Notes: a model not told the origin generated them from the sequence alone. Counted from the first letter of the stretch, positions 11,111 to 27,035 are shown. The stretch: 64,000 nucleotides of DNA from Gammaproteobacteria bacterium (GCA_003248125.1 QJXZ01000089.1:3995-67994); one strand, 5' to 3'. Program-made: numbers and translations.

Positions 11111-12364
11111 GTGCAATTCGTAGTCCCGACCAGAACCATTGCCGCGGTCGCAGTGTTGGCCACGGTGCTCGGCTGTGGCTCAACGTCGGTGCGCAGCGTC
11201 GACATGCGGCCACCGGAACGCGCCACCAACGCCGTTCCCGAAGCGCTGCTGCTCGATGTCGGTGTCGCCATATTCGACGCCAACATACCGGAAGACTATG
11301 ACGAGCAGATCGAAGGCAACATTGCCCCCGAGGTGCGTCGCGCCGAGGGCAACTACATCGCCTACTTCTTGAAGAACGTGCTCCAAGACACGGGCCAATG
11401 GGGGGCCGTGCGCGTCGTGCCTCGTCATACCAATGCGGTCGACGTGATCGTCTCCGGCAAGATCATTGCATCGGATGGCGAACGCCTCCAACTGGAAGTG
11501 ACCGCCACCGATGCCACTGACACCGTGTGGTTTACGAAGCGCTACGAAGGTTTGTCGAGCCGTTATGCCTATGACGTTTCGGTCCCGCGCGAGTTCGATC
11601 CCTTCCAAACCGTCTATCGCGAGATCGCGGACGATCTGCTCGCACATCGGAAGAATCTGGACGAAACGGCAATTGGACGTGTTCGAACCGTTGCCGAGAT
11701 GAAATTCGCACGTGAATTCGCACCCGATGCGTTTGCCAATTACGTAGAACAGGACAAGCGTGGCCAGAGCAAGGTGGTACGCTTGCCAGCGACCAACGAC
11801 CCTATGCTGGCGCGTGTCCGGCGTGTTCGCGAACGCGAATACCTGTTCATCGACACCCTCGACGAATATTTCGCCGAGTTTCACCGCAAGATGTTCACGC
11901 CCTACCAAGAGTGGCGCCTCGCTACCTACGACGAAGCAATGGCATATCGCGAGCTGAAGGCGCAATCGCGCGCGCGCATGTTGGGCGGTGCGCTTGCCAT
12001 CGCCGGCGGGATCGGCGCCCTCACAAGTGACGACAACAGCGGCATGACGCAGGGTGCAGGGTATGTCGCAATCGTAGGTGGCGCGCTCGCGGTCCAGAGC
12101 GCGGTCAAGAAACGCGCCGAAGCGCAGATCCATGCCGACGTCCTGCAGGAACTTGGGGTCTCTGCCGAAGCCGAGATCGCACCCCACACCATCGACTTGG
12201 AAAACCGCACCGTCAGCCTGAGCGGCACCGTCGATGCTCAATACGACGCGATGAAACGCGTCTTGCGCCAGGTCTATTACGAAGAGCTCGGCCTCGCGCT
12301 GCCGCCCGAGCCGGCACTCCCCGCAGCGATCGAGACGGAGCCCGACGCCGGCAGCGACGCATAG
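11111..12364 (+). CDS. lipoprotein, unknown function (417 aa)
   Basis: GTG start immediately after the previous stop. Lipobox LATVLGCGS. Predicted hydrophobic Gly/Ala-rich segment LGGALAIAGGIGAL...YVAIVGGALAV near the C-terminal third. Confidence 0.7.
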   Translation: MQFVVPTRTIAAVAVLATVLGCGSTSVRSVDMRPPERATNAVPEALLLDVGVAIFDANIPEDYDEQIEGNIAPEVRRAEGNYIAYFLKNVLQDTGQWGAVRVVPRHTNAVDVIVSGKIIASDGERLQLEVTATDATDTVWFTKRYEGLSSRYAYDVSVPREFDPFQTVYREIADDLLAHRKNLDETAIGRVRTVAEMKFAREFAPDAFANYVEQDKRGQSKVVRLPATNDPMLARVRRVREREYLFIDTLDEYFAEFHRKMFTPYQEWRLATYDEAMAYRELKAQSRARMLGGALAIAGGIGALTSDDNSGMTQGAGYVAIVGGALAVQSAVKKRAEAQIHADVLQELGVSAEAEIAPHTIDLENRTVSLSGTVDAQYDAMKRVLRQVYYEELGLALPPEPALPAAIETEPDAGSDA

Positions 12365-13864
12365 ATGAGTTCGCAGTCCGACGACTTCGTCACCATCCGG
12401 CCACGACGTGCGCCGCTCGCCCACGTTCCTGCGGACGCGACGGTCGACGCCGCGTCTGCTACTCGTCGCTTGCCGCTCGCATGGCTCGGCTTTGCAGCAT
12501 TGCTCGCGCTCGCCATCTGGGTGTTGTTTTTCATGCCCGCGCCGGTCGTGGAGCCTCCGCCGCGCACGCCCGGCGTCGAGCAAAGCGCAGCGCCCCGTGC
12601 TGCCGACGCAACGCCCGCGCCGTTCGAAGACCTGCAACGCAAGCGGGCGCGTGACGACGCGCAGGCACTGCTGTCGCGATTCGTCGAACTGCAAATCCGG
12701 CTTGACGACGAGATGCAGGTCACCGAATGGGCGCCCGAGGAGTTCGAGGCCGCCCAACGCGCTGCCAACGATGGCGATCAGCGATTCTTGAAGGAGAACT
12801 ACGAAGCCGCTATGGCGGCATATCGAAGTGGTATCGACGGGCTAGAAGCTTTGGTTGCGCGCGGCCAAGCGACGTTCGATGACAACTTGGCAGCGGGACT
12901 GACCGCGTTGGCACGCGGCGATGCGCCGGCTGCACTTGCGGCGCTCGATACCGCCGCCATCGTGCATCCCGGCGATCCGCGGCTCGCTGCCGCGCGCCAC
13001 CGGGCCGAAGTGCTGCCGGAAGTCGTCGAGCTGACACGTCGCGCGGAGATCGCTGCCGCCAAAGGCGATGCCGCTGACGCCATCGATGCGTACACGCGCG
13101 CGCTAGCCCTGGACCCGACCCGCACCGATCTCGAGCCGCAGATTGCCGAGTTGCGGGCAACACAAGCGGATCGTGCCTTCGCGGCACGACTCACCACCGG
13201 CTTCGATGCACTCGATGCCGGCAATCTCGATCGGGCGCTCGATGCCTTCCGCGCCGCGCTGCGTGACCGACCCAACGATCAAGCTGCGCGCGACGGTCTC
13301 GCGCAGGTCGAGCAGGCGCAGACGCTGGCGCGTATCGAGTCGACGCGCCGACATGCCGTCGAGCTCGAGGCGGCCGAGGATTGGCCAGCTGCCGCAGCAG
13401 CCTACGGAGACGTGCTGGCGATCGACCCCACGATTCAATTCGCAACCGAAGGACGCGCACGCGCAGAAGCCCGCATACAGCTCGACCAACGATTGCGCGA
13501 CGCCCTGTCCGATCCGGGGGCGCTGTCGGCCGATGCGGTCTTCCAGAACGCGGTGGCCTTGTACGACGAGGCGGTCGACATCGCCGCTCCGGGTGCCAAG
13601 CTGACGGCACAGCTCGATCGGCTCGAGTCGATGATCGCTGTGGCCGCACAACCAACCACGGTGGTGCTGACCTCGGATGCGGCCACCGACGTGAGCGTCT
13701 ACCAGCTCGGCAACATCGGTCGGTTCGAGCGCAAGGAAGTCAGCCTGCGGCCGGGCCGCTACCTCGTTACCGGCAGCCGGCCAGGACGTCGCGACGTCCG
13801 CTTCGAGATGCTGGTGACCCCAGGCATGGCGCCGGTCGACGTGCGCTGCTCGGAAACGATCTGA
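12365..13864 (+). CDS. membrane-anchored TPR-repeat protein
   Basis: ATG directly abuts the previous stop. Single TM LAWLGFAALLALAIWVLFFM. Ala/Asp/Arg-rich TPR-like repeats. The C-terminal beta-rich segment TTVVLTSDAATDVSVYQLG...GRYLVTGSRPGRRDVRFEMLV is PEGA/CarboxypepD_reg-like. Confidence 0.7.
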   Translation: MSSQSDDFVTIRPRRAPLAHVPADATVDAASATRRLPLAWLGFAALLALAIWVLFFMPAPVVEPPPRTPGVEQSAAPRAADATPAPFEDLQRKRARDDAQALLSRFVELQIRLDDEMQVTEWAPEEFEAAQRAANDGDQRFLKENYEAAMAAYRSGIDGLEALVARGQATFDDNLAAGLTALARGDAPAALAALDTAAIVHPGDPRLAAARHRAEVLPEVVELTRRAEIAAAKGDAADAIDAYTRALALDPTRTDLEPQIAELRATQADRAFAARLTTGFDALDAGNLDRALDAFRAALRDRPNDQAARDGLAQVEQAQTLARIESTRRHAVELEAAEDWPAAAAAYGDVLAIDPTIQFATEGRARAEARIQLDQRLRDALSDPGALSADAVFQNAVALYDEAVDIAAPGAKLTAQLDRLESMIAVAAQPTTVVLTSDAATDVSVYQLGNIGRFERKEVSLRPGRYLVTGSRPGRRDVRFEMLVTPGMAPVDVRCSETI

Positions 13865-13866
13865 GC

Positions 13867-15912
13867 ATGCCGGCCGTCGACGGCGACGCGGTGATTCGGC
13901 CGCAGGTATTCGTGCCAACCAGCCGTCAGGCACGTCCACCGTGGTGGCGACGATACGGCGTTCGAATTGCACTCGGTATCGTGACGGTCGTGGTCGCGAC
14001 CGTGGTTTGGTACTTGTTCACCGCCCGCTCCGTGCGCATCGAGCTCACGCCTGCCGATGCCGCGCTCGAGATTCACGGCGCGTTCGATCTCGCGTTGGGT
14101 GGCACGTGGGTTCTGCGCGAAGGCCAGTATCGCCTCACCGCGAGCGCCGATGGGTTCTTCGATCTCGATGCGCCGCTCATGGTCGACGATGCCGAGTACC
14201 AAACTTACAGATTCGAGCTAAAGCCGCTGCCCGGACGCGTCGATTTCATCTCCAACCCTGCAGGCGCCGTGGTGTTCATCGATGGTGAGCGCATTGGTGT
14301 CACGCCGCTCGGCGCCATCGAAATCGCTGCCGGTGAACACGACCTCGAGATCGTCGAACGACGTCACGTCTCGCACATCGCCAAGCTCGACGTCGTTGGC
14401 CGCGGCACCGCCCAGCAAGTCGAGGTGATCCTCGAGCCGAATTGGGCGGACGTCACCATCGCGTCGACTCCGGCCGGCGCACAAGTACTGATCGATGACG
14501 AGAACATCGGGGTAACGCCCGGCACGTTCGAGGTAGTGGCTGGGACACGCGAGCTACGCATCAAGTTGCCGAGGCACAAGAGCGCCGTCGAGCAGTTGAC
14601 TGTCGCTGCGCGCCAGGCGTTGACCTTGCCGCCATTCGTTCTGCAACCGGCCGACGCCCTGCTCACGGTACGCTCGGCACCAACCGGCGTCGCGGTCACG
14701 GTGGATGGCAGGTATCAGGGTACAACGCCGCTCGAAGTGGCGTTGGCACCGGGCCGCGAGCACGCAGTGCGTCTGTCGAAGGCTGGCTACGCAGCTGCGA
14801 CCCGGCGCGTCACGCTGCAGGCGACCGACGAACGAACGCTCGAGGTGCAGCTCGACGCGCTGCTCGGTACCGTCATGATCACGGCAACCCCTGCCGACGC
14901 GGAAGTGTGGGTTGATGGCGTCGCACGCGGCGCGGTCCGGCGCCTGCAATTGCCGGCCCGAAGCCACCGGCTCGAGTTCAAGAGGGCTGGCTATGAGAGT
15001 CAAGCCAAAGAAGTGACGCCACAACCGAACATCACGCAGCAGCTGGCTGTCAGACTGCTCACCCACGCCGAAGCGCGGCTCGCGAAGCTCGTGCCGCGGA
15101 TCAAGCACCCGGCCGGAGGCGAGATGTTGCTGTTCGACGGCGGCGCAGTAACGATGGGCGCATCGCGCCGTGAGCCCGGTCGACGGGCCAACGAGACACT
15201 ACGCACCGTCAACGTCACACGTCTGTTCTATCTCGCGACCACCGAGGTCACGAACGGACAATTTCGGCAATTCGCCAAGGCGCACAGCTCCGGCAAGTTC
15301 GAAGAGCAAGAACTCGACAAGGACGACCAGCCGGTTGCCAACGTCACCTGGCTCGAGGCTGCACTGTTCTGCAATTGGCTTTCGGAGCGCGCGCGACTAC
15401 CCGTGTTCTATCGGGTCGAGTTCGGCAAGGTCGTCGGCTTCAATGCCAAAGCCACGGGTTTTCGTCTGCCTACCGAAGCGGAGTGGAGTTGGACCGCCCG
15501 CACAAGGCCCGACGGCTCACCGACTCAACGATTCCCGTGGGGAGATGCGCTGCCGCCCCCGGAACGATTCGGAAACTATGCGGACCGCTCGGCGTCTCAC
15601 GTGTTGGGTCGTATCGTATTCGGCTACAACGACAACTTCATCGTATCGGCGCCTGTCGCCACGTTCGCAGCCGATGCCCGAGGGCTTTTCGACTTGTCAG
15701 GCAATGTCGCTGAGTGGGTAAACGATTTCTATGAGATTCCCAGCGAAGCGGCTGCGTCCGACCCACTCGGACCAGCGAGCGGTGACTATCACGTGATTCG
15801 CGGTTCGAGCTGGATGCACGGCACGATCACGGATCTGCGCACGTCGTTCCGCGACTACGGCGAGGACGGTCGCCCCGACCTCGGCTTCCGCATCGCAAGG
15901 TTTGCAGAGTGA
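13867..15912 (+). CDS. membrane-anchored PEGA-repeat protein with C-terminal FGE-sulfatase (SUMF1/EgtB/PvdO) domain
   Basis: Inner ATG 2 nt after the previous stop. TM IALGIVTVVVATVVWYLF. At least 4 PEGA units (SNPAGAVVFIDGERIGVTP, STPAGAQVLIDDENIGVTP, SAPTGVAVTVDGRYQGTTP, ATPADAEVWVDGVARG). FGE-fold motifs: FYLATTEVTNGQFRQF, PVANVTWLEAALFCNWLS, GFRLPTEAEWSW, GNVAEWVNDFY, VIRGSSW, GFRIARF. Confidence 0.85.
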   Translation: MPAVDGDAVIRPQVFVPTSRQARPPWWRRYGVRIALGIVTVVVATVVWYLFTARSVRIELTPADAALEIHGAFDLALGGTWVLREGQYRLTASADGFFDLDAPLMVDDAEYQTYRFELKPLPGRVDFISNPAGAVVFIDGERIGVTPLGAIEIAAGEHDLEIVERRHVSHIAKLDVVGRGTAQQVEVILEPNWADVTIASTPAGAQVLIDDENIGVTPGTFEVVAGTRELRIKLPRHKSAVEQLTVAARQALTLPPFVLQPADALLTVRSAPTGVAVTVDGRYQGTTPLEVALAPGREHAVRLSKAGYAAATRRVTLQATDERTLEVQLDALLGTVMITATPADAEVWVDGVARGAVRRLQLPARSHRLEFKRAGYESQAKEVTPQPNITQQLAVRLLTHAEARLAKLVPRIKHPAGGEMLLFDGGAVTMGASRREPGRRANETLRTVNVTRLFYLATTEVTNGQFRQFAKAHSSGKFEEQELDKDDQPVANVTWLEAALFCNWLSERARLPVFYRVEFGKVVGFNAKATGFRLPTEAEWSWTARTRPDGSPTQRFPWGDALPPPERFGNYADRSASHVLGRIVFGYNDNFIVSAPVATFAADARGLFDLSGNVAEWVNDFYEIPSEAAASDPLGPASGDYHVIRGSSWMHGTITDLRTSFRDYGEDGRPDLGFRIARFAE

Positions 15913-16148
15913 CGTTGCGACGCCTCGCGCTGATCGCCGCTGTTGCACTTACGCTACCCCTGGCGGCTGCCGACGGTGAACGGTCGTCGACACCGCCAAC
16001 CCCGGGCGACGGACGCGACAGCACCGAGCCACAGACGGATGACGCCACCACAGAGGGTGACGATTCGGGCGGACCTTCGGCCGATGTGTTCGTGCCCACC
16101 GAAGAGATCTCCGAGGACGCCGCCGTCGCGTTCCCAGTCGACATATGA
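15909..16148 (+). CDS. small secreted acidic protein (79 aa)
   Basis: GTGA overlap with the upstream stop. Signal peptide MTLRRLALIAAVALTLPLAAA, then a Asp/Glu/Thr/Pro-rich mature part ending VFVPTEEISEDAAVAFPVDI. Confidence 0.5.
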   Translation: MTLRRLALIAAVALTLPLAAADGERSSTPPTPGDGRDSTEPQTDDATTEGDDSGGPSADVFVPTEEISEDAAVAFPVDI

Positions 16149-16187
16149 TGTGCGGCACGGTTCGATGACCATCGTCGAGAGAGCAGT

Positions 16188-16985
16188 ATGAAACGCGGGC
16201 TACCATTCGAACTCGTCTACCAGATCGTCGCGCTGGTGATTGCAATCATCGTCGTGCATCTCGTCTACATCACCGTCGTGCGGCCGAATGCCGATGCGGT
16301 GTTGCGCGCCGAAGCAGAGCGCCTCGCCGCCGGGGAATCGTTCGTTCAAGAGCGATCGTTGTACGTGGTGCTCAAAGACTACGAGCAGGAGTCGTGCTTC
16401 ATTCTGATGTTTTGGGCTGTTTCGATCATGGGATTCAAGGCACGCACGGCGCTCAAGGAGCGCGCGCTGCTGGACCAGAGCATCGTCACGGTCGCCGAAG
16501 GTATGAGCATTCTTCCCGAAGACACGCGCGAATACGCGCGACCCATACAAGCGTTCGATGCCGAGACGCGCGGTCTGCTACTGCCGCGCGTGCTGCTCGC
16601 GGCGTTGCAGCGATTTGCTTCGGCGCGCAACGTACAAGACGTGTCCGAAGCCGTCACGACGATCTGCAGCGCCGAATCGGATCGTCTCGACAGCGAGTTG
16701 TCGATGGTCCGCTACATCGCCTGGGCGATTCCTTCAATAGGGTTCATCGGCACGGTGCGCGGTATCGGCGACGCGCTCGGGCAGGCCTATCGCGCGGTCG
16801 AGGGTGACATTGCCGGCGTGACTGCGAGCCTCGGCGTAGCGTTCAACTCCACGTTCGTGGCACTCGTCATCAGCATCGTACTGATGTTCCTCATGCATCA
16901 GCTGCAGCTCATTCAGGAACGGCTCGTGCTCGATACGCAGACCTACTGCGACCAGCGACTCATTCGCCACCTGCAGGTGCGCTGA
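16188..16985 (+). CDS. MotA/TolQ/ExbB proton-channel family protein
   Basis: 265 aa with three predicted TM helices. C-terminal signature YIAWAIPSIGFIGTVRGIGDALGQAY...LGVAFNSTFVALVISIVLMFLMHQL corresponds to the MotA_ExbB domain. Confidence 0.85.
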   Translation: MKRGLPFELVYQIVALVIAIIVVHLVYITVVRPNADAVLRAEAERLAAGESFVQERSLYVVLKDYEQESCFILMFWAVSIMGFKARTALKERALLDQSIVTVAEGMSILPEDTREYARPIQAFDAETRGLLLPRVLLAALQRFASARNVQDVSEAVTTICSAESDRLDSELSMVRYIAWAIPSIGFIGTVRGIGDALGQAYRAVEGDIAGVTASLGVAFNSTFVALVISIVLMFLMHQLQLIQERLVLDTQTYCDQRLIRHLQVR

Positions 16986-18280
16986 TGACGACGTTCGTGC
17001 TCGACTTGAACGATGCGCAGCTGCGCGTCGGCCGGGGCACGGACGTGGTCGCACAGTCGTCGGGCTACGCGCTGATCGAGGGCAACCGGCTGCTGCTCGG
17101 CGATGACGCAAGGCGCGCATTCCGTCTGCATCCACGACAGGCACACAACGCCTTCTGGCACCGCTTGAGCACCGAAGTGCTCAGCCACCGGACCCGCGAG
17201 CTTGCGAGTCACGCCGATCTCGTCTACCGACATCTTCGCGCGCTCGTCGAGCAAGCGCACATCTCGCCAGGTGACGAGCTCATCATCGCCGCTGCGGCAA
17301 CCACTTCCGCCGAGCAGCTCGCCTTGCTGCTCGGTATCGCCGAGCAGGTTGGTCTGAATGTCACTGGTCTGGTCGACGCCGCGGTGGCCGCGACCGCCAC
17401 CGCAGAAATGCCAGCTCTCTTCCGCTACATCGATGTGGGGCTGCACCGTTTGTCGGTGACGCAAGTGCAAGGTGGCAACGAACTCGAGCGAGTCGGCTGG
17501 CAGGACATCACCGAGCTATCGCTCGCAGCGCTACTCGATGCATGGGTAAACGTGGTCGCTGACCGCTTCGTGCGCGAAACGCGTTTCGATCCCCTGGTCA
17601 ACGCGGCAACCGAGCAACAGGTCTACGACCGAATCTTCGACTGGTTCACCTCCGGCGCGCCCGCCGGCGATCTCGGCATAACCATCGAGCATGCCGGCAC
17701 CGAACGGCGCATCGACTTGTCGACGGCGCTGCTGACCGAGAAGGCGGTGAGCCGCTACCGGGTGATCGACAAGGCCCTCGACGGCGTGCCCATCGTATTG
17801 TCGCATCGTGCCGCCGCGCTGCCGGGATTCGAGGCTACCCTGCACGAACGGACGGGCACGATCATTGTCTGCAAGCCGGATGCCGTGTTCCAGGGCGTGG
17901 CCGGCCATCTCGGCGCCATTCGATCGACGGGCGACGGCGTTCGATTCGTCACGCGCCTGCCCTCCTCCGGCATCCGCCCGAGTCTCGAGGCACCGCGCAA
18001 GACTGCGCCCACCCACATTCTGTGCGGCTCGATCGCGCGCCCAATCGGCGCGGGCTTGACCATCGATGCCCTTCACTTCCCAGACCTGCCCAGCGACTTT
18101 CCCACCGGTTCGTTCGCGGTCCGGCCCGGTGACGAAGCTGCCAGTCTCAGCGTCGCGGCAGGAACTGCAGTTGCGGTAGACGGGGCGCCAGGGCGAGACG
18201 GCGTGGCGCTCGCAACCGGCGCGGTCATCGAAGTAGCGGGCGTACGGTTCACGCTGATCGAGGTGGCCGATGGCGCGTAG
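16985..18280 (+). CDS. cytoplasmic hypothetical protein, degenerate Hsp70/actin-fold-like N-region plus FHA-like C-terminus (tentative)
   Basis: TGATG overlap with the MotA-like gene. No signal peptide or TM. FVLDLNDAQLRV, ELIIAAAATTSAEQLALLLGIAEQVGLNVTGLVDAAVAATAT and FRYIDVGLHRLSVTQV sit where DnaK has GIDLGTTNS, AVITVPAYF..A..AG..V.R.INEPTAAA and DLGGGTFD, but the catalytic residues are replaced. The C-terminus ends VAVDGAP..VALATGAVIEVAGVRFTLIEV. Confidence 0.7.
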   Translation: MTTFVLDLNDAQLRVGRGTDVVAQSSGYALIEGNRLLLGDDARRAFRLHPRQAHNAFWHRLSTEVLSHRTRELASHADLVYRHLRALVEQAHISPGDELIIAAAATTSAEQLALLLGIAEQVGLNVTGLVDAAVAATATAEMPALFRYIDVGLHRLSVTQVQGGNELERVGWQDITELSLAALLDAWVNVVADRFVRETRFDPLVNAATEQQVYDRIFDWFTSGAPAGDLGITIEHAGTERRIDLSTALLTEKAVSRYRVIDKALDGVPIVLSHRAAALPGFEATLHERTGTIIVCKPDAVFQGVAGHLGAIRSTGDGVRFVTRLPSSGIRPSLEAPRKTAPTHILCGSIARPIGAGLTIDALHFPDLPSDFPTGSFAVRPGDEAASLSVAAGTAVAVDGAPGRDGVALATGAVIEVAGVRFTLIEVADGA

Positions 18281-19358
18281 CCGCGGTTTCAACGTGTTCT
18301 CGCTGTCGTTCCTCGACATCATGTCGTGCGGATTCGGCGCAGTAGTGCTCATCTATTTGATTATCAATCACGCCACGGAGGTCGAGTTTCGTACTCAACA
18401 GGAGGATCTGTACGCGGAAATCCGCAAGCTCGATTATGAAGTCGATGTCGGTGAGACGAATTTGGCGGACGTCAGGCAGTCGTTGAGCTCAGTCGAGCGG
18501 CGGCTGGACGAAGCGCGACGCCGCCGGGTCGCGTTGACCGTGAGTGTCGAAGACCGACGCAAAGAACTCACGCGCCTGCAAGCCGACACCCTTGCCAAGG
18601 TGGAGCACCTCAATCAGCTGAAGAGCGACGTGGAGTCACGCACCGAAGACGTCGAACGCATGAAGGCTTCGACGGCCGACGATACCGGCGAGCGGGCACG
18701 AACGTTCGTCGGCGAAGGAGACCGCCAGTATCTGACGGGTCTCAAGGTCGGTGGCGACCGCATCTTCATCGCCGTCGACACATCCGCGAGCATGCTGGAC
18801 GAGACCATCGTCAACGTGCTGCGCCGACGCAACATGGACGACTCGCGCAAGCTCGCGGCACCGAAATGGCGGCGTGCGGTGGCGACCGTCGAGTGGGTGG
18901 TTGCACAACTACCGCTCGAGGGTCAGTTCCAGTTGTACGGCTTTGCGGAACAGGCGGCACCCATCGTGTCGGGTACCGAGGGCCAATGGCTCGACGTGAC
19001 ATCGCGCACCGATCTCGACCGCGCCATCGACGGCCTGAAACAGATCGTGCCGACCAAAGGCACCAGCCTCAAGGCCGTGGTCGACGCCATCGAGAGCATG
19101 CGCCCGGCACCCGACAACATCATACTCATCGTCGATGGACTGCCGACGATTGGCGACCGCGCAGCCCGTTCAGCAATGGTGTCGGGGCGCGATCGCCTGC
19201 GCTTGTTCAACGATGCCGCTGACGATCTGCCGCTCAACATCCCGGTCAATGTCATTTTGTTCCCGATGGAAGGCGATCCTTATGCGGCCGGTTCCTACTG
19301 GGGCCTGGCACACGTAACGAAGGGCTCGTTCTTGTCGCCATCGAAGGACTGGCCATGA
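18270..19358 (+). CDS. single-pass TM / coiled-coil / vWA (MIDAS) protein, paralog 1
   Basis: N-terminal TM FSLSFLDIMSCGFGAVVLIYLI with an embedded Asp. About 130 aa of heptad-like charged sequence. vWA domain with MIDAS DTSAS, later KGTS and IVDGLPT. Confidence 0.82.
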   Translation: MARSRGFNVFSLSFLDIMSCGFGAVVLIYLIINHATEVEFRTQQEDLYAEIRKLDYEVDVGETNLADVRQSLSSVERRLDEARRRRVALTVSVEDRRKELTRLQADTLAKVEHLNQLKSDVESRTEDVERMKASTADDTGERARTFVGEGDRQYLTGLKVGGDRIFIAVDTSASMLDETIVNVLRRRNMDDSRKLAAPKWRRAVATVEWVVAQLPLEGQFQLYGFAEQAAPIVSGTEGQWLDVTSRTDLDRAIDGLKQIVPTKGTSLKAVVDAIESMRPAPDNIILIVDGLPTIGDRAARSAMVSGRDRLRLFNDAADDLPLNIPVNVILFPMEGDPYAAGSYWGLAHVTKGSFLSPSKDWP

Positions 19359-20353
19359 CCACGCGCAGGCGCCGACCCATAGAAGAGATCTCGATGTCGT
19401 TTCTCGACGTCATCTGCTGTGGCTTCGGGGCCGTCATCCTCCTGCTCATGATCACCAAGACTGCCGAGCCGCTGATCCTCGAGAAGACCAGCGTTCGGCT
19501 CAATGGCTTCGTCGCGCAACGGCAAGATTCGGTCCACGATATCCGTGGCCAGACCACCACGCTCACGCGCGAGCTGACGGACAAGCAGCGCGAGCTCGAC
19601 CAAGAGCTCGACACCATTGCCCGTCTCAACAGCCAATTGACGACGATCCTTGCGCAATACGACACCACGCGTAGCCAGTCTGAAGATCAGGTGACTCTGG
19701 AGACGAAACTCGCGTCCGCCAAGCAGAGTCTCACCGACGAGATGGAGCGATTACTCGGTACCGGCTTCGTACGGCAAGACAGCACGATCGGTGGGATTCC
19801 GGTCGACAGCGAGTACATCATCTTCGTGATCGACACCTCGGGCAGCATGTTCAATTTCGCCTGGGGCTTGGTGATGAAGAAGCTGTCCGAGACGTTGGCG
19901 ATCTATCCCACCGTCAAGGGCATTCAAGTGATGGACGATCAAGGCGGCTATATGTTCCCCCGCTACGCGGGTCGCTGGATTCCAGATTCACCTGCCCGTC
20001 GCCGCGCCATCATGGAGCGCATGCGCACCTGGAACCCGTTCTCGAACTCGAGTCCGGTAGAAGGCATCGAGCAGGCCGTGCGTACGTTCTACGACCCCGA
20101 CAAGCGTGTCAGCATCTATGTGTTCGGTGACGATTTCACGGGCAACAGCATCGAGGAAGTAGTCGATACTGTAGATCGCATCAATCGCGCCGATGATACC
20201 GGCCACCGTCGCATGCGCATCCACGCGGTCGGATTTCCGGTACTCGCGTCGGTGGCCGAGCGGCGCGCCTCGTTCCATCGGTTCGCGGCGTTGATGCGCG
20301 AACTCACGTATCGCAACGATGGTACGTTCGTCGGCCTACCGGAGTTCCGATGA
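19355..20353 (+). CDS. single-pass TM / coiled-coil / vWA (MIDAS) protein, paralog 2
   Basis: ATGA overlap with paralog 1. N-terminal TM ISMSFLDVICCGFGAVILLLMI, then a coiled-coil-like stretch. vWA domain with IIFVIDTSGSMFN and YVFGDDFTGN. Confidence 0.82.
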   Translation: MTTRRRRPIEEISMSFLDVICCGFGAVILLLMITKTAEPLILEKTSVRLNGFVAQRQDSVHDIRGQTTTLTRELTDKQRELDQELDTIARLNSQLTTILAQYDTTRSQSEDQVTLETKLASAKQSLTDEMERLLGTGFVRQDSTIGGIPVDSEYIIFVIDTSGSMFNFAWGLVMKKLSETLAIYPTVKGIQVMDDQGGYMFPRYAGRWIPDSPARRRAIMERMRTWNPFSNSSPVEGIEQAVRTFYDPDKRVSIYVFGDDFTGNSIEEVVDTVDRINRADDTGHRRMRIHAVGFPVLASVAERRASFHRFAALMRELTYRNDGTFVGLPEFR

Positions 20354-21030
20354 TCAATGCGAAGTGGAGGTATAGGGCAGTGAACATCGCGACGCGATAC
20401 CGTCGTAAGACACTGTTGATCGGCGTATGCAGCGCAATGGTCGGCTGCGGCGGCGGTGCCGCGGTGCAAGTGGAAGGAGATTTTCCGAAGCCGCTGATCG
20501 TCGCCTCGCCCGTGCACGTCGGACTGGTGCTCGACGATGCGCTCATCACCTACGTGCACACCGAAACCATCGAGAAGGCCGGGGAGTGGTCGGTCGACGT
20601 AGGCCCGATGCAGCCAAAGCTGTTCCGCAGCGTATTCGGCGCCATGTTCACCGATGTCACCGAAGTAGCAACGATCGCCGATGGTGCCGGCCTCGCAGGC
20701 GTGCTCGTACCGCGCATCGACAAGTTCCAAATTGCGGTGCCGGCACAGACCCGAAACGATTTCTACGAGGTCTGGATCCGATATGTGATTGCCCTCTACG
20801 ACGCCGGCGGCAGCCCCATTGTCGAATGGCCGCTGACGGCGTACGGTAAGACCAGCAAAGAGGAGTTCGGTCCGCTCGAGAGCGCCGACGAACCCGGCAT
20901 GAGGGCCGCGACCATGACCGCGATGCGCGATGCGGGTGCCTTCTTGGCATTGCGCTTTCCGACACTTCCCGAAGTACAGCGTTGGCTGCGCGCACACGCG
21001 AGTCCGGATGCGGAGGGCATGAGTCCATGA
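20350..21030 (+). CDS. lipoprotein, unknown function
   Basis: ATGA overlap with the upstream gene. Basic N-terminus then lipobox-like LLIGVCSAMVGCGGG. Confidence 0.65.
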   Translation: MINAKWRYRAVNIATRYRRKTLLIGVCSAMVGCGGGAAVQVEGDFPKPLIVASPVHVGLVLDDALITYVHTETIEKAGEWSVDVGPMQPKLFRSVFGAMFTDVTEVATIADGAGLAGVLVPRIDKFQIAVPAQTRNDFYEVWIRYVIALYDAGGSPIVEWPLTAYGKTSKEEFGPLESADEPGMRAATMTAMRDAGAFLALRFPTLPEVQRWLRAHASPDAEGMSP

Positions 21031-21680
21031 GAGTTGCGATCTTCGCCCTCGTCACGGCCGGCCTCACCAGCGGCTGCGTCACGACCACCATTCAAGAGAT
21101 GCGGGAAGCCGATACCGGCATCGAAGACGGCGAATCGGTCGTGGTGCTCGGTCGGCACCACAAGGGCGGCCAAGACATCGAGAGCGGCTTCGTGGATTGC
21201 GTGTCCAACAATCTCAACGGTGGACGCAACAAACTCGGCGTCATCCGTGAGGACGAGTTCGTCGATGCCATGTTCCCGTGGTTCGAACCACGCACTGCGC
21301 CGCTCACCACCACCGACCTACCCGAGATCATTGGCCACCCGATGCTGTCCGAGCGATTGGGCGAGATTGGTGTGCGCTATGTCGTGTGGGTGGAAGGCGC
21401 AACGCACCGTACCGATCAGGGCGGGTCACTCGCCTGCAGCGCGGGCCCGACCGGAGCCGCGTGCTTCGGCTTCTTGAGTTGGGAGGACGACTCTTCCTAC
21501 GAAGCCGCAGTTTGGGACATCAAGCAGGGTGCACAGGTCGGCCGCGTGAGTTCAGATGCCGTGGGTACCAGCTTCATGCCTGCGGTGATCGTCCCTGTAC
21601 CGTTCATCGCCCGAGTCCAGAACACGGCTTGCAGCACGCTGGCAGATCAGTTAAAGCGTTTTATCACAAACGACTCCTAA
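21027..21680 (+). CDS. lipoprotein, unknown function
   Basis: ATGA overlap with the upstream gene. MRVAIFALVTAGLTSGCVTTT. Last gene of the same-strand run. Confidence 0.65.
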   Translation: MRVAIFALVTAGLTSGCVTTTIQEMREADTGIEDGESVVVLGRHHKGGQDIESGFVDCVSNNLNGGRNKLGVIREDEFVDAMFPWFEPRTAPLTTTDLPEIIGHPMLSERLGEIGVRYVVWVEGATHRTDQGGSLACSAGPTGAACFGFLSWEDDSSYEAAVWDIKQGAQVGRVSSDAVGTSFMPAVIVPVPFIARVQNTACSTLADQLKRFITNDS

Positions 21681-21698: not shown

Positions 21699-22328
21699 CT
21701 ATTTTGGGCGAATCTCGAGAATCTCTCCGCTCGCTCGATTGGGTTCCACGGCATACCATTCGAGCAATTCCACGTGGTACTTGGCGCGGCACTTGTCGGC
21801 CAAATCGTAGAACGTCGGCCGTCCCGGGTCGGCAATGATTACCCGCTTCACGCCCGCGCGCATGGCACGCTGAATGAGGTTGTAGAGTGGTTTGACGAGC
21901 TTCGTCCAGAAGCATATGTCGGACCCGATCAGCACGCGCTCTTTGGCGAGCCGCGCGGTGGAGAGATCCTCGAAGCGCGACACCAACGGCTCGATGCTGA
22001 CATCGTTCAGCGCGGCAATGACGTTCAAGAATGGGAACACGTCTTTGTCGATGTCCACACCTGTCACCTTGGCATCGAAGCGCCGTGCGCAAAACACCGA
22101 TGCCGGCCCCCACCCGCAGCCAATCTCCATGACGCGGGTGCCGCGTCGGATCGGGTGCTCGAGCAAGTAGTCCATCAGAAGGAAACTCGATTCCCATGTC
22201 TTGTGGCCATGCACCGACGGCTCGTAGATACGGCGCAACTGCCGCATCAGCCGGTGCTGGGATTGCAACAAGTAGACGCCGTAGGCCGCATAGATATGGG
22301 GCTCCGGCATGCGCTCGACCCGAGGCAT
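21699..22328 (-). CDS. class I SAM-dependent methyltransferase (Methyltransf_16/lysine-MT-like)
   Basis: 209 aa. SAM motif I VMEIGCGWGPASVFCA, then KVTGVDID. Convergent with the upstream operon. Confidence 0.8.
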   Translation of the reverse strand: MPRVERMPEPHIYAAYGVYLLQSQHRLMRQLRRIYEPSVHGHKTWESSFLLMDYLLEHPIRRGTRVMEIGCGWGPASVFCARRFDAKVTGVDIDKDVFPFLNVIAALNDVSIEPLVSRFEDLSTARLAKERVLIGSDICFWTKLVKPLYNLIQRAMRAGVKRVIIADPGRPTFYDLADKCRAKYHVELLEWYAVEPNRASGEILEIRPK

Positions 22329-22430: not shown

Positions 22431-23921
22431 ATGCCGGGCCGTTTTCCCTTAGCCCCAGATCGAGCCGACGTGGCCGACAATCGAACCGACGACATCGACC
22501 GCTTGATCGAGCGTCCGTATCGCGCGGGCTTCGTGACCGACATCGACTCGGATACGTTGCCGCCGGGCCTCGACGAGGACGTCATTCGTGCCATTTCGAT
22601 GCGCAAAGGCGAACCCGATTGGCTGCTCGATTGGCGCCTCGGCGCCTATCGCCACTGGCGAGCGATGCCCCAACCGGCATGGGCGCACCTAGAGTTTCCG
22701 GCAATCGACTTCGATGCCATTTCCTATTATTCGGCGCCGCGATCACAAGCCAACCGACCGAAATCGCTGGCAGAGGTCGACCCGCAACTGCTCGCCACCT
22801 ACGAGAAGCTCGGCATCCCACTGCACGAGCGCGCCGCGCTTGCCGGCGTCGCCGTCGACGCAGTATTCGATAGCGTTTCCATCACCACCACGTTCAAAGA
22901 CAAGTTGGCCGATGCAGGAGTGGTGTTTTGCTCGTTCTCCGAGGCCGTCGCGGCGTATCCGGAACTGGTGCGGCGCTATCTCGGTACGGTGGTGCCGCCG
23001 CGCGACAATTTCTACGCCACGCTCAACTCCGCGGTTTTCAGTGATGGGTCGTTCGTGTATGTACCGGCCGGCGTACGTTGTCCGATGGAGCTGTCGACGT
23101 ACTTCCGCATCAACGCCCGCAACACGGGCCAATTCGAGCGGACGCTGATCGTCGCTGAGCCGGGCGCCTACGTCAGCTACCTCGAAGGATGCACGGCACC
23201 ACAGCGCGACGAGCACCAGCTGCATGCCGCAGTGGTGGAATTGGTCGCGCTGGATGATGCCGAAATCAAATACTCGACCGTGCAGAACTGGTATCCCGGT
23301 GACGCCGAGGGTCGTGGTGGCATCTATAACTTCGTCACCAAACGCGGAGCGTGCATCGGCAGGCGCTCGAAGATCTCATGGACGCAGGTGGAAACCGGCT
23401 CGGCGATCACTTGGAAGTACCCGAGCGTGGTGCTGCGCGGCGACGACAGCATCGGCGAGTTTCATTCCGTAGCGCTGACCAACAACCGTCAACAAGCCGA
23501 CACCGGCACCAAGATGATCCATCTCGGACGCAACACGAAGAGCACGATCGTCTCGAAGGGCATCAGCGCCGGTCGCAGTCAGAACAGCTACCGAGGGCTG
23601 GTGCGCATCGCCCCGACGGCGCGAGGTGCGCGCAACCACACCCAATGCGATTCGTTGCTGATCGGCGACGCCTGCGGCGCGCATACGTTTCCGTACATCG
23701 AATCGAGTCAGCCCTCTGCGGTCGTAGAGCACGAAGCAACCACGTCGAAGGTCAGCGACGATCAGCTGTTCTTGTGCCGTAGCCGCGGTATCGATCCCGA
23801 GAAGGCGGTCAGCATGATCGTCAACGGTTTTTGCAAGGAGGTGTTCCGCGAGCTACCGATGGAGTTCGCAGTCGAAGCCGGCAAGCTTCTCGAGGTCAGC
23901 TTGGAAGGTGCCGTCGGATGA
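22431..23921 (+). CDS. sufB: Fe-S cluster assembly protein SufB
   Basis: 496 aa. [39 protein letters not shown] and [22 protein letters not shown] are typical of SufB. GTG at 22470 is an alternative start. Confidence 0.95.
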
Positions 23922-24679
23922 CGTCGCGACCATTGCTCGAAATCGTCGACTTGCACGTCACGGTCGCTGGCAAGCCGATCGTGAACGGATTGAGTCTCAC
24001 GATAGGCATCGGCGAAGTGCACGCACTCATGGGTCCGAACGGCTCCGGGAAGAGCACGCTCACCAACGTTCTGGCCGGGCGCGAAGGATACGAGGTCGTG
24101 GCGGGTAGCGCGCGCCTTGACGGCAGGGATCTGTTACCGCTCAGCCCGGAAGCGCGCGCTCATCTCGGTTTGTTTCTCGCCTTTCAATATCCCATCGAGA
24201 TACCCGGTGTATCCAACATGGAGTTTCTGAAGGCGGCGCTCGATGCGCGCCAGCAGTCGCTCGGTAGCGAGCCGCTGTCGACGATCGACTTCATGAAGCG
24301 CGTGCGTGGCATTGCGACCGAGCTGGACCTCAGTGCCGAGTTCTTGAAGCGCGGCGTGAACGAAGGTTTCTCCGGCGGCGAGAAGAAGCGCAACGAGATT
24401 CTGCAGATGTTGATGCTCGAACCACGCATGGCGCTGCTCGACGAGACCGACTCCGGCCTCGACATCGACGCGCTGAAGGTCGTGGCAGCCGGAGTGAACC
24501 GTTACCGCCGCGAAGACCGCGGAATTTTGCTGGTCACGCACTACCAACGTCTACTTGACCACATCGTTCCGGATTTCGTGCACGTGCTCGCCGGCGGACG
24601 CATCGTACGTTCCGGCGACGCCAGCCTCGCCCGCGAACTCGAAGCGCGAGGCTACGGCTGGCTGACTGACGCCGCTTGA
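23918..24679 (+). CDS. sufC: Fe-S cluster assembly ATPase SufC
   Basis: ATGA overlap with sufB. Walker [14 protein letters not shown] signature FSGGEKKR, Walker [13 protein letters not shown]. Confidence 0.95.
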
Positions 24680-25812
24680 CCATGGCTACCGGCCAAGACT
24701 TCCTCGCCAGACTGCTCCAGCAGGCCACGTCGGCGGAGTCGACCCGCGTGCGTGTGCGTGCCGCCAACATCGAATCGCTGCGCGACAACGGCTTGCCGCT
24801 CGAAGAACGCTTGGAGTCCTTCAAATACACGCCCCTTGCGCGTTTCGTTGTCGACGATTTACTAGAGGAGCGCTTTAGCCCGCCGACAATCACGGTGGCA
24901 AACGCTGCGCCCCCGCCCGAAATCACGGTCGAGCACAGCATCGACCCGCTGCCCGCCGACCATCATCCGCTGGCGCGCATCAACGGCAGCCTGCTCGCCG
25001 GTGTGGTGTACGTCGACGTCGCACCCAACACGCATCTCGACTACCCCATTGAGATCGACTATCGACAGGCCGGGCCGTGCACACGCGTGTGCGTTCGTGC
25101 CGGCGATGCCAGCCGGTGCGAAATCGTCGAACGGCACGTCGCTGCCGGCGTCGCCAATCGTGTCACGCGAGTCGACATCGGCTCCGGAGCGACCGTCGCG
25201 CATCGTCGCATCGAGCTGCATGCGGCGGCGCATTCGCAGTGGGCATTGCTCGCCGTCGACGTCGGAGCGGCTTCACACTATGAACTCGATCACTACATGG
25301 CGGCGGCTGCGCCGCGTCGGTCGGAAGTAGTCATCGACCTCACCGGTTGCGGCGCAAGCTGCGAGCTGACCGGTGCCGTCATCGGCAACGAAAAGCAGAT
25401 CGGCGATCTGCAAGTGCAGGTCAATCATCGCGCCACCGATACGCGAAGCCGTCAACTGGTGCATGCGATTGCCGCGGGGCAGTCGGTGCTCACCTTCAAC
25501 GGCCGCATCGAGATCGATGCACGTGGCGATGGCAGTGATGCGACACTTACGAGCCGCAACCTGTTGCTCGCACCAACTGCGCGAGTGAACGCCAAGCCGG
25601 AGCTCGAGATCCACACTCGTAACGTTGCATGCAGCCACGGGGCCACGGTCGGACAGCTCGACCCACAACAGCTCTTCTACCTGCGCAGCCGCGGTATCGA
25701 CGACCTCACCGCGCGCCGCCTGTTGACGCGCGCATTTCTGCTCCGTGCCATCACGCCGCGGGCGCAGGCGCTCGGCTTCGAGGCCGAGCTGATCGCCCAT
25801 CTCGCGCCATGA
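24676..25812 (+). CDS. sufD: Fe-S cluster assembly protein SufD
   Basis: 378 aa between sufC and sufS. C-terminal CSHGATVGQLDPQQLFYLRSRGI is the SufB/D family motif. Confidence 0.9.
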   Translation: MTMATGQDFLARLLQQATSAESTRVRVRAANIESLRDNGLPLEERLESFKYTPLARFVVDDLLEERFSPPTITVANAAPPPEITVEHSIDPLPADHHPLARINGSLLAGVVYVDVAPNTHLDYPIEIDYRQAGPCTRVCVRAGDASRCEIVERHVAAGVANRVTRVDIGSGATVAHRRIELHAAAHSQWALLAVDVGAASHYELDHYMAAAAPRRSEVVIDLTGCGASCELTGAVIGNEKQIGDLQVQVNHRATDTRSRQLVHAIAAGQSVLTFNGRIEIDARGDGSDATLTSRNLLLAPTARVNAKPELEIHTRNVACSHGATVGQLDPQQLFYLRSRGIDDLTARRLLTRAFLLRAITPRAQALGFEAELIAHLAP

Positions 25813-27035
25813 GTCATGCCACCAACATTACCGCGCTTCGAAGCGACTTCCCGATCCTAGCCGAGCGCGTAAACGGCCAGCCGCTGACATATCTCGACAG
25901 CGCCGCCACCACACAGAAGCCGGCGGCCGTGATCGCGGCGATCGCCGACTACTATCGGCACGACAACGCCAATGTGCACCGCGCCGCACACGCGCTTGCC
26001 GACCGCGCGACAGCGGCGTTCGAAGAAGCACGCCGCAAGGTGCAGAAGTTGCTCGGTGCCCAGCGCGCCCACGAGATCATCTTCACCCGTGGCACCACCG
26101 AATCCATCAATCTCGTCGCGCAGAGCCATGGGGGTCACCGACTGCGCGCCGGCGACGAGATTCTCGTAACCGAACTCGAACACCACTCGAACATAGTGCC
26201 CTGGCAGCTAGTAGCGGCACGGAAAGGCGCGAAAGTGTTGGCTGTTCGCGTTACGGCGAATGGCGAAATCGATCTCGACGATCTCGATTCGAAAATCGGC
26301 GAGCGCACACGCATCGTCGCCGTCGGACACGCATCCAACGCACTCGGTACCATCAATCCGGTCGATGAGATCGTTCGGCGCGCGCACGACGCCGGCGCCG
26401 TAGTATTGATCGATGGTGCGCAGGCAACCGCGCACCTCGACATCGACGTCGCTGCCTTGGATGTCGATTTCTATGCCATTTCCGGCCACAAGGCCTATGG
26501 GCCAACCGGCATCGGTGCGCTGTATGGCAAGGAGTCGCTCCTCGAGTCGATGCCCCCGTGGCAAGGTGGTGGCGAAATGATCGAGACCGTGACGATCGAG
26601 CACACCACATTCAATCGACTGCCGTTCAAGTTCGAAGCGGGCACACCGCACATTGCCGGCGCTATCGGTTTTGGTGCCGCAATCGACTACCTGGCGGCGA
26701 TCGATGCGCAGGCCCTCGCTAACCACGAAGCAACTCTGCTGCGACTGGTCACAGACCGGCTGGCGCAGACCGAAGGTGTACGTTTGATTGGAACGGCACG
26801 CGACAAGGTATCGATCGTCTCCTTTCTACTCGATGGCCAGCACCCACACGATGTCGCCACCCTACTCGACCAACAGGGCGTTGCCGTTCGCAGCGGACAC
26901 CACTGCGCGATGCCGTTGATGCAAAGACTCGGCATTCCGGGCACCGTGCGTGCTTCGCTTGGTCTCTATAATTCTCCTGCCGATGTCGATCGGCTGGTGC
27001 GTGCGGTCGAGAAGACGCGCGCCCTGCTCACCTGA
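25809..27035 (+). CDS. sufS: cysteine desulfurase, SufS subfamily
   Basis: ATGA overlap with sufD. RSDFPIL, YLDSAATTQKP, PLP-lysine context ISGHKAYGPTGIG, active-site loop RSGHHCAMPL. Confidence 0.95.
   Translation: MSHATNITALRSDFPILAERVNGQPLTYLDSAATTQKPAAVIAAIADYYRHDNANVHRAAHALADRATAAFEEARRKVQKLLGAQRAHEIIFTRGTTESINLVAQSHGGHRLRAGDEILVTELEHHSNIVPWQLVAARKGAKVLAVRVTANGEIDLDDLDSKIGERTRIVAVGHASNALGTINPVDEIVRRAHDAGAVVLIDGAQATAHLDIDVAALDVDFYAISGHKAYGPTGIGALYGKESLLESMPPWQGGGEMIETVTIEHTTFNRLPFKFEAGTPHIAGAIGFGAAIDYLAAIDAQALANHEATLLRLVTDRLAQTEGVRLIGTARDKVSIVSFLLDGQHPHDVATLLDQQGVAVRSGHHCAMPLMQRLGIPGTVRASLGLYNSPADVDRLVRAVEKTRALLT

Follow-up and report, generated by a model that had tools for sequence, protein, structure and literature searches.

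Paired coiled-coil vWA proteins encoded beside a MotA-like gene in a gammaproteobacterium: candidates for the axle of a 5:2 motor

The vwaA/vwaB gene pair and the neighbouring ring protein

Two adjacent paralogous genes, here called vwaA and vwaB, were analyzed in a stretch of 64,000 nucleotides (nt) from a Gammaproteobacteria bacterium (GCA_003248125.1, QJXZ01000089.1:3995-67994), hereafter the window, and all coordinates are counted from its first letter. Both genes lie on the plus strand. The first, vwaA (18270-19358), encodes a protein of 362 amino acids (aa) with an Arg-rich N-terminal tail, a transmembrane (TM) helix, a heptad stalk, a linker and a vWA domain, and vwaB (19355-20353) encodes its paralog of 332 aa with a TM helix, a heptad stalk and a vWA-like head. 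As had been stated in a preliminary description of the locus, the two open reading frames (ORFs) overlap by the ATGA that joins the stop of vwaA to the start of vwaB, the N-termini share the motif S-x-SFLD[IV]xxCGFGAV[IV]L (they read FSLSFLDIMSCGFGAVVLIYLI and ISMSFLDVICCGFGAVILLLMI), and the pair is found 3' of a MotA/ExbB-like gene, a PF01618 gene at 16188-16985, with a 431-aa ORF in between.

The TM helix covers residues 14-33 in vwaA (nt 18309-18368) and residues 16-36 in vwaB (nt 19400-19462). Asp16 (nt 18315-18317) and Asp18 (nt 19406-19408), respectively, are the third residues of hydrophobic stretches of about 20 residues, in line with the single N-terminal TM helix with an Asp near its cytoplasmic end that had been claimed for both paralogs. 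The helices read SFLD[IV]xxCGFGAV and contain neither His nor an SHLS motif. The heptad stalk follows, at residues 34-135 in vwaA (nt 18369-18674) and running to about residue 135 in vwaB; instead of the 120-130 heptad residues proposed earlier, the stalk was found to comprise about 100 residues, and a linker of about 28 follows it. In vwaA the predicted metal-ion-dependent adhesion site (MIDAS) of the vWA domain (residues 164-362) comprises D170, S172 and S174 (DTSAS, nt 18777-18791), T265 and D289, and in vwaB it comprises D160-T-S-G-S164 (DTSGS, nt 19832-19846), S230/S232 and D259. Both of these motifs had been named correctly. The further claim that the downstream Thr/Asp positions are kept held for vwaA (T265, D289), whereas in vwaB the fourth position is most likely Ser (SNSSP).

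The two proteins share 29% identity over residues 1-177 (BLASTP, E 6e-10), and their family profiles align with an hhalign probability of 99.6% (E 2.4e-24) over vwaA residues 1-292, a region that takes in the first half of the vWA domain. An AlphaFold2 (AF2) monomer model of vwaA, built with an alignment of 30 sequences, reached a mean predicted local distance difference test (pLDDT) score of 79; in it, one continuous helix (residues 20-135) is joined to an alpha/beta domain (164-362) by a linker modelled with low confidence (136-163). Almost all of the top 50 Foldseek matches of this domain in the PDB are vWA/MIDAS domains (best E about 1e-7), including 4fx5, ITIH1, Cav alpha2delta, ANTXR2, LapA and Rea1, and Pfam VWA_2 matched vwaA over the cut-off (5e-7). 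For vwaB itself the Pfam scan gave no vWA match. Its head was assigned as a putative vWA domain because its profile aligns to vwaA and because VWA_2 and VWA were matched in 6/35 and 5/35 of its orthologs, respectively. Searched against the PDB, the vwaB profile matched no vWA chain; its only hits, on the stalk, were to coiled-coil proteins, among them lamin, keratin and IFT74.

In both paralogs the strongest period in the family-averaged hydropathy of the stalk is exactly 3.5 residues, and its register runs on without a break; the signal exceeds that of shuffles with p=0.005 in vwaA (residues 36-135) and with p=0.001 in vwaB (residues 40-135). From helix geometry, the approximately 100 helical residues past the membrane would span roughly 15 nm. 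The N-terminal tails are Arg-rich in both paralogs and in vwaA an acidic stretch follows the TM helix; this charge distribution fits an N-in, C-out topology, which would place stalk and vWA heads in the periplasm. The coiled coil and the topology that had been predicted for the pair agree well with the heptad periodicity and with this charge pattern.

The gene at 16188-16985 on the plus strand encodes a MotA/TolQ/ExbB-family channel protein of 265 aa, the presumed pentameric part of a motor. It matched PF01618 (MotA_ExbB) with 54.6 bits (cut-off 22.9), and scored 29 against the TolQ equivalog model, which needs 221, and 16.5 against the ExbB equivalog model, which needs 135. Thus, the MotA-like protein is neither a TolQ nor an ExbB equivalog. 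When the single protein was compared with the PDB by phmmer no match was obtained, and a profile of 31 MotA-like orthologs reached the TolQ structure 8odt (E 0.003). In that alignment A-I-P-S-I-G-F-I-G-T189-V-R-G-I falls on TolQ P-Y-I-G-L-F-G-T145-V-W-G-I, and A-F-N-S-T222 on TolQ A-L-I-A-T178. Residues P182, G185, T189 and T222, all invariant in the 31 sequences, match TolQ P-x-x-G-x-x-G-T145 and T178. The pore of ExbB and TolQ is lined by these threonines where it surrounds the Asp of ExbD or TolR.

Genomic linkage and conservation of the pair

Related loci were collected first from a single-protein scan of genome contigs, which gave 3 loci, and then from an alignment-based metagenome scan; 87 loci were obtained, and the proteins of the window were mapped onto the first 85 of them (L001-L085). 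A MotA gene was present upstream of the pair in 40/41 loci with a flank of at least 2.6 kb, and vwaB followed downstream in 62 of the 63 loci with a flank of at least 1.1 kb. Wherever the contig was long enough, the same gene order recurred: lipoprotein, TPR protein, PEGA/FGE protein, MotA-like protein, 431-aa protein, vwaA and vwaB. The clusters examined contain one MotA-like gene each. Two more distant loci carry related arrangements. In a Gigantopelta sulfur-oxidising symbiont (L087) the TPR gene, the PEGA/FGE gene, a small ORF, the MotA gene and the vWA pair were found, and in a deltaproteobacterial metagenome-assembled genome (L086) an FGE-like fragment, a small ORF, the MotA gene and the vWA pair; two unrelated genes separate this set from the TPR gene of L086, about 1.5 kb further upstream.

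In the window, ATGA overlaps connect the MotA-like gene with the 431-aa gene, vwaA with vwaB, vwaB with the gene starting at 20350, and the latter with the gene starting at 21027. Between the gene at 13867-15912 and the small ORF behind it the overlap is GTGA, and 11 nt are shared by the 431-aa gene and vwaA. From 10163 to 21680 the plus-strand genes are closely packed or overlap one another. This chain of start-stop overlaps ties together eight consecutive genes (13867-21680, plus strand), which suggests translational coupling in one operon and a fixed stoichiometry of the products. Among the related loci, the start of vwaB and the stop of vwaA overlap by 4 nt in 18 pairs, and 8 other pairs share 1 nt.

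Conservation was followed in 30 vwaA sequences (52-76% identity), in 35 vwaB sequences and in 120 close homologs (50-100% identity). Invariant residues of vwaA in the set of 30 are F14, L15, D16, C20, G21, F22 and G23 at the helix and D170, S172, S174 and D289 at the MIDAS, where either T or S occupies position 265; likewise invariant were the G-D-R-Q-Y-L-T-G motif of the linker and the final residues D-W-P. In vwaB, D18, D160-T-S-G-S164, S230, S232 and D259 are invariant (35/35), with Ser in place of Thr. The TM Asp was kept in 120/120 close homologs, and [FM]-[LIM]-D was kept in every representative with an intact N-terminus among the top 150 clusters at 50% identity, down to 30% identity. 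Loss of the Asp among orthologs had been named in advance as an observation that would speak against a motor; the residue was kept in all 120 close homologs, in all 35 vwaB sequences and in every full-length representative to 30% identity.

The D-x-S-x-S motif is also kept among the top 150 representatives save for one subgroup at 32-34% identity (P0339, P0345, P0359, P0361, P0369, P0371, P0376 and P0378), in which the corresponding positions read E-x-S-G-G/S. The residues of the predicted metal site are kept in both families, this divergent subgroup excepted. Members of the subgroup retain the TM Asp and the stalk and carry a short extension past the C-terminal W-P.

The spacing between TM Asp and MIDAS Asp was determined in 64 gene pairs, one deltaproteobacterial pair included, and amounts to 154-157 residues in vwaA and 141-147 in vwaB. 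Strong constraint therefore acts on the length of the stalk. Since the stalk lengths of both paralogs are nearly invariant, their covariation has no power as a test for a heterodimer.

Whether the paralogs pair with each other or with themselves was weighed on these data. ExbD, TolR and MotB are homodimers. By analogy, vwaA and vwaB could each form a homodimer and thereby two separate 5:2 complexes (A2 and B2) with different heads, and the difference of about 12 residues in Asp-MIDAS spacing between the paralogs and their identity of 29% over residues 1-177 would be consistent with such an arrangement. We regard this as rather unlikely. The two genes occur together in 62 of 63 loci and are frequently coupled by ATGA, both stalks have matched heptad regions of about 100 residues, and each cluster has a single MotA-like gene. 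A heterodimer is favoured because of the near-obligate pairing and the translational coupling.

The family is large. A scan of 1.84 billion cluster representatives returned 1433 clusters at 50% identity with E ≤ 0.001, 776 with E ≤ 1e-10 and 297 with E ≤ 1e-30. Relatives were found in Gammaproteobacteria, Desulfobacterota and Verrucomicrobiota, including a protein of Puniceicoccaceae (Verrucomicrobiota) at 30% identity, and the gammaproteobacterial carriers come from marine, freshwater and soil habitats.

Relation to ion-driven motors

The ion-binding residues of the established axle proteins are D25 in ExbD, D23 in TolR and D32 in MotB. The ExbD helix reads N-V-T-P-F-I-D25-V-M-L-V-L-L and the consensus of the present family N-V-F-S-L-S-F-L-D-V-M-S-C-G-F-G-A-V. 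Neither ExbD/TolR (PF02472) nor MotB was matched by the vWA pair in Pfam or NCBIfam. Homology of the TM helix to ExbD, TolR or MotB, considered as an argument for membership in that family, was rejected since nothing significant was found; the likeness at the level of the motif was kept. The periplasmic part of vwaA consists of coiled coil and vWA domain, with no ExbD-type alpha/beta domain and no OmpA-like peptidoglycan-binding domain detected in it. Pfam and NCBIfam searches of the chosen ORFs between 3715 and 22328 also revealed no ExbD/TolR/MotB/OmpA-like domain in the cluster or in flanking proteins, and no tolR, exbD or motB gene is annotated in loci L004, L086 and L087. The preliminary description had proposed that the pair replaces ExbD/TolR/MotB. 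As functional analogy this stands, with the TM Asp, the MotA linkage in 40/41 loci and the missing ExbD-type gene in its favour; as family membership it does not stand. On present evidence the vWA pair seems to work like ExbD/TolR, with a likeness of position and motif only, and its proteins are not demonstrable members of that family.

A gene set of this kind has been predicted computationally before. The "TPH-vWA" (transpore-helix vWA) family (Mol Biol Evol 2025;42(6):msaf138; PMC12204202) consists of membrane-tethered vWA proteins that occur "predominantly in heterologous pairs" beside tolQ-like genes. They have no tolR/exbD gene nearby and no SHLS motif, the Asp of their transpore helix is conserved, and most of them come from Proteobacteria and Verrucomicrobia. 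In that paper, AlphaFold 3 models placed the helices inside a TolQ-like pentamer with the Asp pair within a ring of Thr, and the role of Thr in the pore is described there for TPH-vWA in the same way as given above for ExbB and TolQ. A second vWA family in the same paper binds the side of the motor like TonB/TolA. The seed organism was Idiomarina loihiensis, and no function and no deletion phenotypes were reported for TPH-vWA (PMC12204202).

The present locus resembles TPH-vWA in its N-terminally tethered vWA proteins, the tolQ-like neighbour, the missing tolR/exbD gene, the heterologous pair, the conserved helix Asp without SHLS, the Thr ring and the taxonomic range. By the features of PMC12204202 that were compared, the locus is a TPH-vWA member and nothing contradicts this assignment; a homolog search from a divergent representative gave no Idiomarina among the taxa named. 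The motor interpretation of the preliminary description is thus supported, yet it re-derives a published computational hypothesis. Of the observations that had been named as able to speak against a motor, those that were run all came out in its favour: the Asp is conserved, the charge pattern fits N-in and MotA linkage was found. The text of PMC12204202 contains no coiled-coil stalk, no MIDAS status and no operon partners (PEGA/FGE, small protein, TPR, lipoproteins, Hsp70-like/FHA-like). Added here are the heptad stalk of fixed length, the conservation of the MIDAS and the conserved operon partners around the motor.

We consider it likely that the two helices are the axle of a 5:2 motor with a MotA-like pentamer, and that the vWA heads, borne by the coiled coil, meet a partner close to the outer membrane. 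The MotA-like protein, in five copies, would form a membrane ring, and two N-terminal helices, one from each paralog, would occupy its pore. D16 and D18 would face the conserved Thr ring and carry protons in the manner of ExbD D25, TolR D23 and MotB D32. Past the membrane, the two MIDAS vWA heads would be taken across the periplasm by a parallel heptad coiled coil, whose approximately 100 residues would span roughly 15 nm and whose length hardly varies. Proton flow might then turn or pull this shaft, and the heads, in contact with an acidic residue by way of a bridging metal, might hand the force on to the partner near the outer membrane. The partner would most likely be encoded in the same operon, and the PEGA/FGE-like protein, the small secreted protein with its acidic C-terminus, or a lipoprotein could take this role.

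The same helices could also belong to ordinary periplasmic vWA proteins of the BatA/BatB or TolA-like kind, docked outside the motor or standing apart from it, while the ring would use ExbD/TolR from elsewhere or have no axle. The lack of significant helix homology to ExbD/TolR and the side-binding second vWA family of PMC12204202, which acts in the manner of TonB/TolA, would be consistent with docking outside. Against it, the S-H-L-S/His motif that marks side-binding transducers is missing from the helices, an invariant membrane-embedded Asp would be costly unless functional, and the clusters examined have no MoxR ATPase or Bat component and no tolR/exbD. Such a position, outside the motor or apart from it, is therefore judged very unlikely here.

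Several points weigh against the axle interpretation. SFLDIM can be placed on ExbD PFIDVM in the correct register, but the hhalign probability of that alignment is 1.2%, and a profile of the 48 N-terminal positions found no ExbD, TolR or MotB in the PDB or Pfam. In the AF2 model of vwaA, confidence is low at residues 1-19, Asp16 included, and at 134-155. The putative vWA head of vwaB was assigned by profile alignment, with a Pfam match in only 6/35 orthologs. The degenerate MIDAS of the divergent subgroup means that metal-dependent binding is not universal in the family. The pairing data fit two homodimers as well as the favoured heterodimer. Pore insertion, the 5:2 stoichiometry, the heterodimer, rotation and the ligand are what we infer from these analyses, pore insertion being drawn also from the AlphaFold 3 models of PMC12204202. 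Finally, locus L058 is the sole exception to MotA linkage and has no MotA gene between the PEGA/FGE and 431-aa genes.

As a separate observation on L058, a divergent MotA homolog (38% identity) is located at 526-1284 on the minus strand of that locus, about 7 kb upstream and on the opposite strand; the stretch L058:8266-8652 belongs to the same observation.

Compared with ExbB/ExbD as well as TolQ/TolR, this locus shares a ring of the MotA/ExbB/TolQ family with pore Thr matching TolQ T145 and T178, and one N-terminal helix with an Asp three residues in, where F-[LI]-D-V-M resembles F-I-D25-V-M of ExbD. In contrast to ExbD/TolR it has a 15-nm coiled coil and a vWA/MIDAS head instead of a small alpha/beta domain, would need no separate TonB/TolA transducer, and has two paralogs rather than a homodimer. 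GldL-GldM and PorL-PorM with the GldK/PorK ring are similar in having a dimeric long-reach shaft in a pentameric ring and a co-encoded protein of the FGE-sulfatase fold. However, GldM has no TM Asp and no vWA head, and its periplasmic part consists of globular domains where the locus has a coiled coil; GldL does not belong to PF01618, and the locus itself has no GldN and a GldK match far below threshold. The gliding machinery of Myxococcus (AglR-AglQ/AglS and CglB) likewise combines a TolQ-like ring with two different TolR-like partners, and has a vWA/MIDAS protein, CglB, in force-coupled envelope adhesion. AglQ and AglS, however, are short and TolR-like, and CglB is a separate outer-membrane lipoprotein that is not fused to the axle. 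ZorA-ZorB resembles the locus as a 5:2 motor with a long coiled coil and through weak profile matches to ZorA2 and ZorB1; the Zorya coiled-coil tail, however, belongs to ZorA and is cytoplasmic, ZorB has a peptidoglycan-binding domain, and the effectors ZorC and ZorD are absent from the locus.

Weak PADLOC matches to ZorA2 (E 0.0066) and ZorB1 (E 0.009, marginal, on vwaA residues 8-74) and a sub-threshold GldK match could be taken to indicate Zorya-like anti-phage defence or an apparatus like that of type IX secretion or gliding. This reading appears extremely improbable. The MotA-like protein, with its 265 aa, lacks a long tail, ZorC and ZorD were not matched, and the cluster stands in stable synteny beside a suf operon and not in a variable island. 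For type IX secretion, the GldK model was matched with 94 bits where 350 are required, and Pfam and NCBIfam gave no match to GldL, GldM or GldN. The Zorya, type IX secretion and Bat-operon readings were rejected, as their defining components are missing.

Ion-driven 5:2 motors are the engines of flagella, of TonB-dependent uptake, of envelope maintenance by Tol-Pal, of gliding and type IX secretion, and of Zorya defence. If the axle interpretation is true, the vWA pair would represent a further branch of these motors, in which there is no separate TonB/TolA transducer and the output domain, a binding head that depends on metal, sits on the rigid stalk of the axle itself. The fixed operon partners provide concrete candidates for the target of the motor, and its role becomes testable through them. 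The standing of this large family is that of a computational prediction, and the concept will not surprise a reader of msaf138.

Co-encoded proteins and surroundings of the cluster

Directly upstream of the MotA-like gene, an unannotated-looking ORF (15909-16148, plus strand) encodes a small secreted protein of 79 aa with a signal-peptide-like N-terminus and an acidic low-complexity middle part. The ORF begins with a GTG that overlaps with the stop codon of the PEGA/FGE gene. The C-terminal 20-mer VFVPTEEISEDAAVAFPVDI, which ends the protein, is strongly conserved and follows the motif F-x-P-[ST]-E-x-[IV]-x-x-[DE]-x-x-[VI]-x-F-P-x-D-I. In 42 of 43 loci, and in the distant L086 and L087 as well, an ORF with this motif directly precedes the MotA gene. 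We speculate that the acidic C-terminus of this protein is the leading candidate for the MIDAS ligand.

The PEGA/FGE protein (13867-15912, plus strand) is a periplasmic protein anchored by one N-terminal TM helix, with four PEGA domains and, at the C-terminus, an FGE-sulfatase-like domain. Against the GldK model TIGR03525 it reached 94.4 bits (cut-off 350). The FGE-like domain, whose C-terminal end reads ...VIRGSSWMHGTITDLRTSFRDYGEDGRPDLGFRIARFAE, is one that we take, judging by eye, to lack the two catalytic Cys of FGE enzymes. For this reason it is probably structural, as in GldK, GldJ and PvdO. Upstream of the PEGA/FGE gene, the conserved gene at 12365-13864 (plus strand) encodes a TPR protein of 499 aa with one TM helix at residues 38-56. 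On present evidence, the minimal core of the system consists of the TPR protein, the FGE-like protein, the small protein, the MotA-like protein and the vWA pair.

The ORF between the MotA-like gene and vwaA (16985-18280, plus strand) encodes a cytoplasmic protein of 431 aa without signal peptide or TM helix, and no Pfam match was obtained for it. Its AF2 model (pLDDT 92.5) shows an Hsp70/actin-like nucleotide-binding fold at about residues 1-325 and a C-terminal beta-sandwich at about 340-425. The model matched the nucleotide-binding domains of Hsp70, DnaK and BiP with E 1e-14 to 1e-16; in comparison with structures of the isolated domain, the TM-score reached 0.70 at most. Distant homologs match Pfam FHA at the C-terminal end. 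According to the model, the 431-aa protein is thus a cytoplasmic Hsp70-like fold with an FHA-like domain. An ATPase activity is doubtful, as the second phosphate-binding motif, H-x-D-V-x-L-H-R, appears degenerate by eye. The gene was present in 40/41 loci of its own clade and absent from the distant loci L032, L039, L055, L079, L086 and L087. It evolves fast, with 25-42% identity vs 57-78% for MotA.

Three lipoproteins belong to the surroundings of the motor genes, all encoded on the plus strand. The one at the head of the cluster (11111-12364) has 417 aa, and its lipobox Cys22 is kept in at least 90% of 17 aligned sequences. The two others follow vwaB: the first (20350-21030) has 226 aa and an invariant lipobox Cys33 and is present in a subset of related clusters, and the second (21027-21680) has 217 aa from the ATG at 21027, with lipobox Cys17 and four further invariant Cys. 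For none of the three families (11111, 20350 and 21027) were relatives found in Pfam, NCBIfam, PADLOC or, by profile search, the PDB.

Joining these candidates to the motor gives a wider picture, in which 10-12 genes would encode a trans-envelope machine. Its proton-driven 5:2 motor would turn a heterodimeric coiled coil of 15 nm, and the MIDAS heads would grip the acidic C-terminus of the small protein or the PEGA/FGE-like protein through a metal-bridged bond that is strengthened by force. Inner-membrane energy would in this way be coupled to a lipoprotein assembly at the outer membrane, functionally parallel to GldLM-GldKN and Tol-Pal and built from unrelated parts, and in the Pseudomonadales clade the Hsp70-like/FHA-like protein would serve as a phosphorylation-sensitive clutch. 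That all of this applies jointly is distinctly unlikely.

Further upstream on the plus strand, a low-complexity Pro/Asp/Gly-rich ORF (10163-11110) is lipoprotein-like, with the lipobox ...GTAMTAC, and ends one base before the next gene; it is possibly the first gene of the operon. The gene at 8502-10004 (plus strand) encodes a secreted TPR_12 and TonB_C protein with a signal peptide and an acidic low-complexity region. Its C-terminal TonB_C domain reached 31.6 bits (cut-off 24.6) and comes without a TonB-type membrane anchor. The gene was found upstream of the cluster in closer relatives, and its product is a possible member of the system.

On the 3' side, the cluster is followed by a class I methyltransferase gene (21699-22328, minus strand) and a sufBCDS operon (22431-27035, plus strand). 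The order of methyltransferase and suf genes is kept in closer Pseudomonadales-type relatives, which indicates stable chromosomal synteny and therefore no mobile or defence island.

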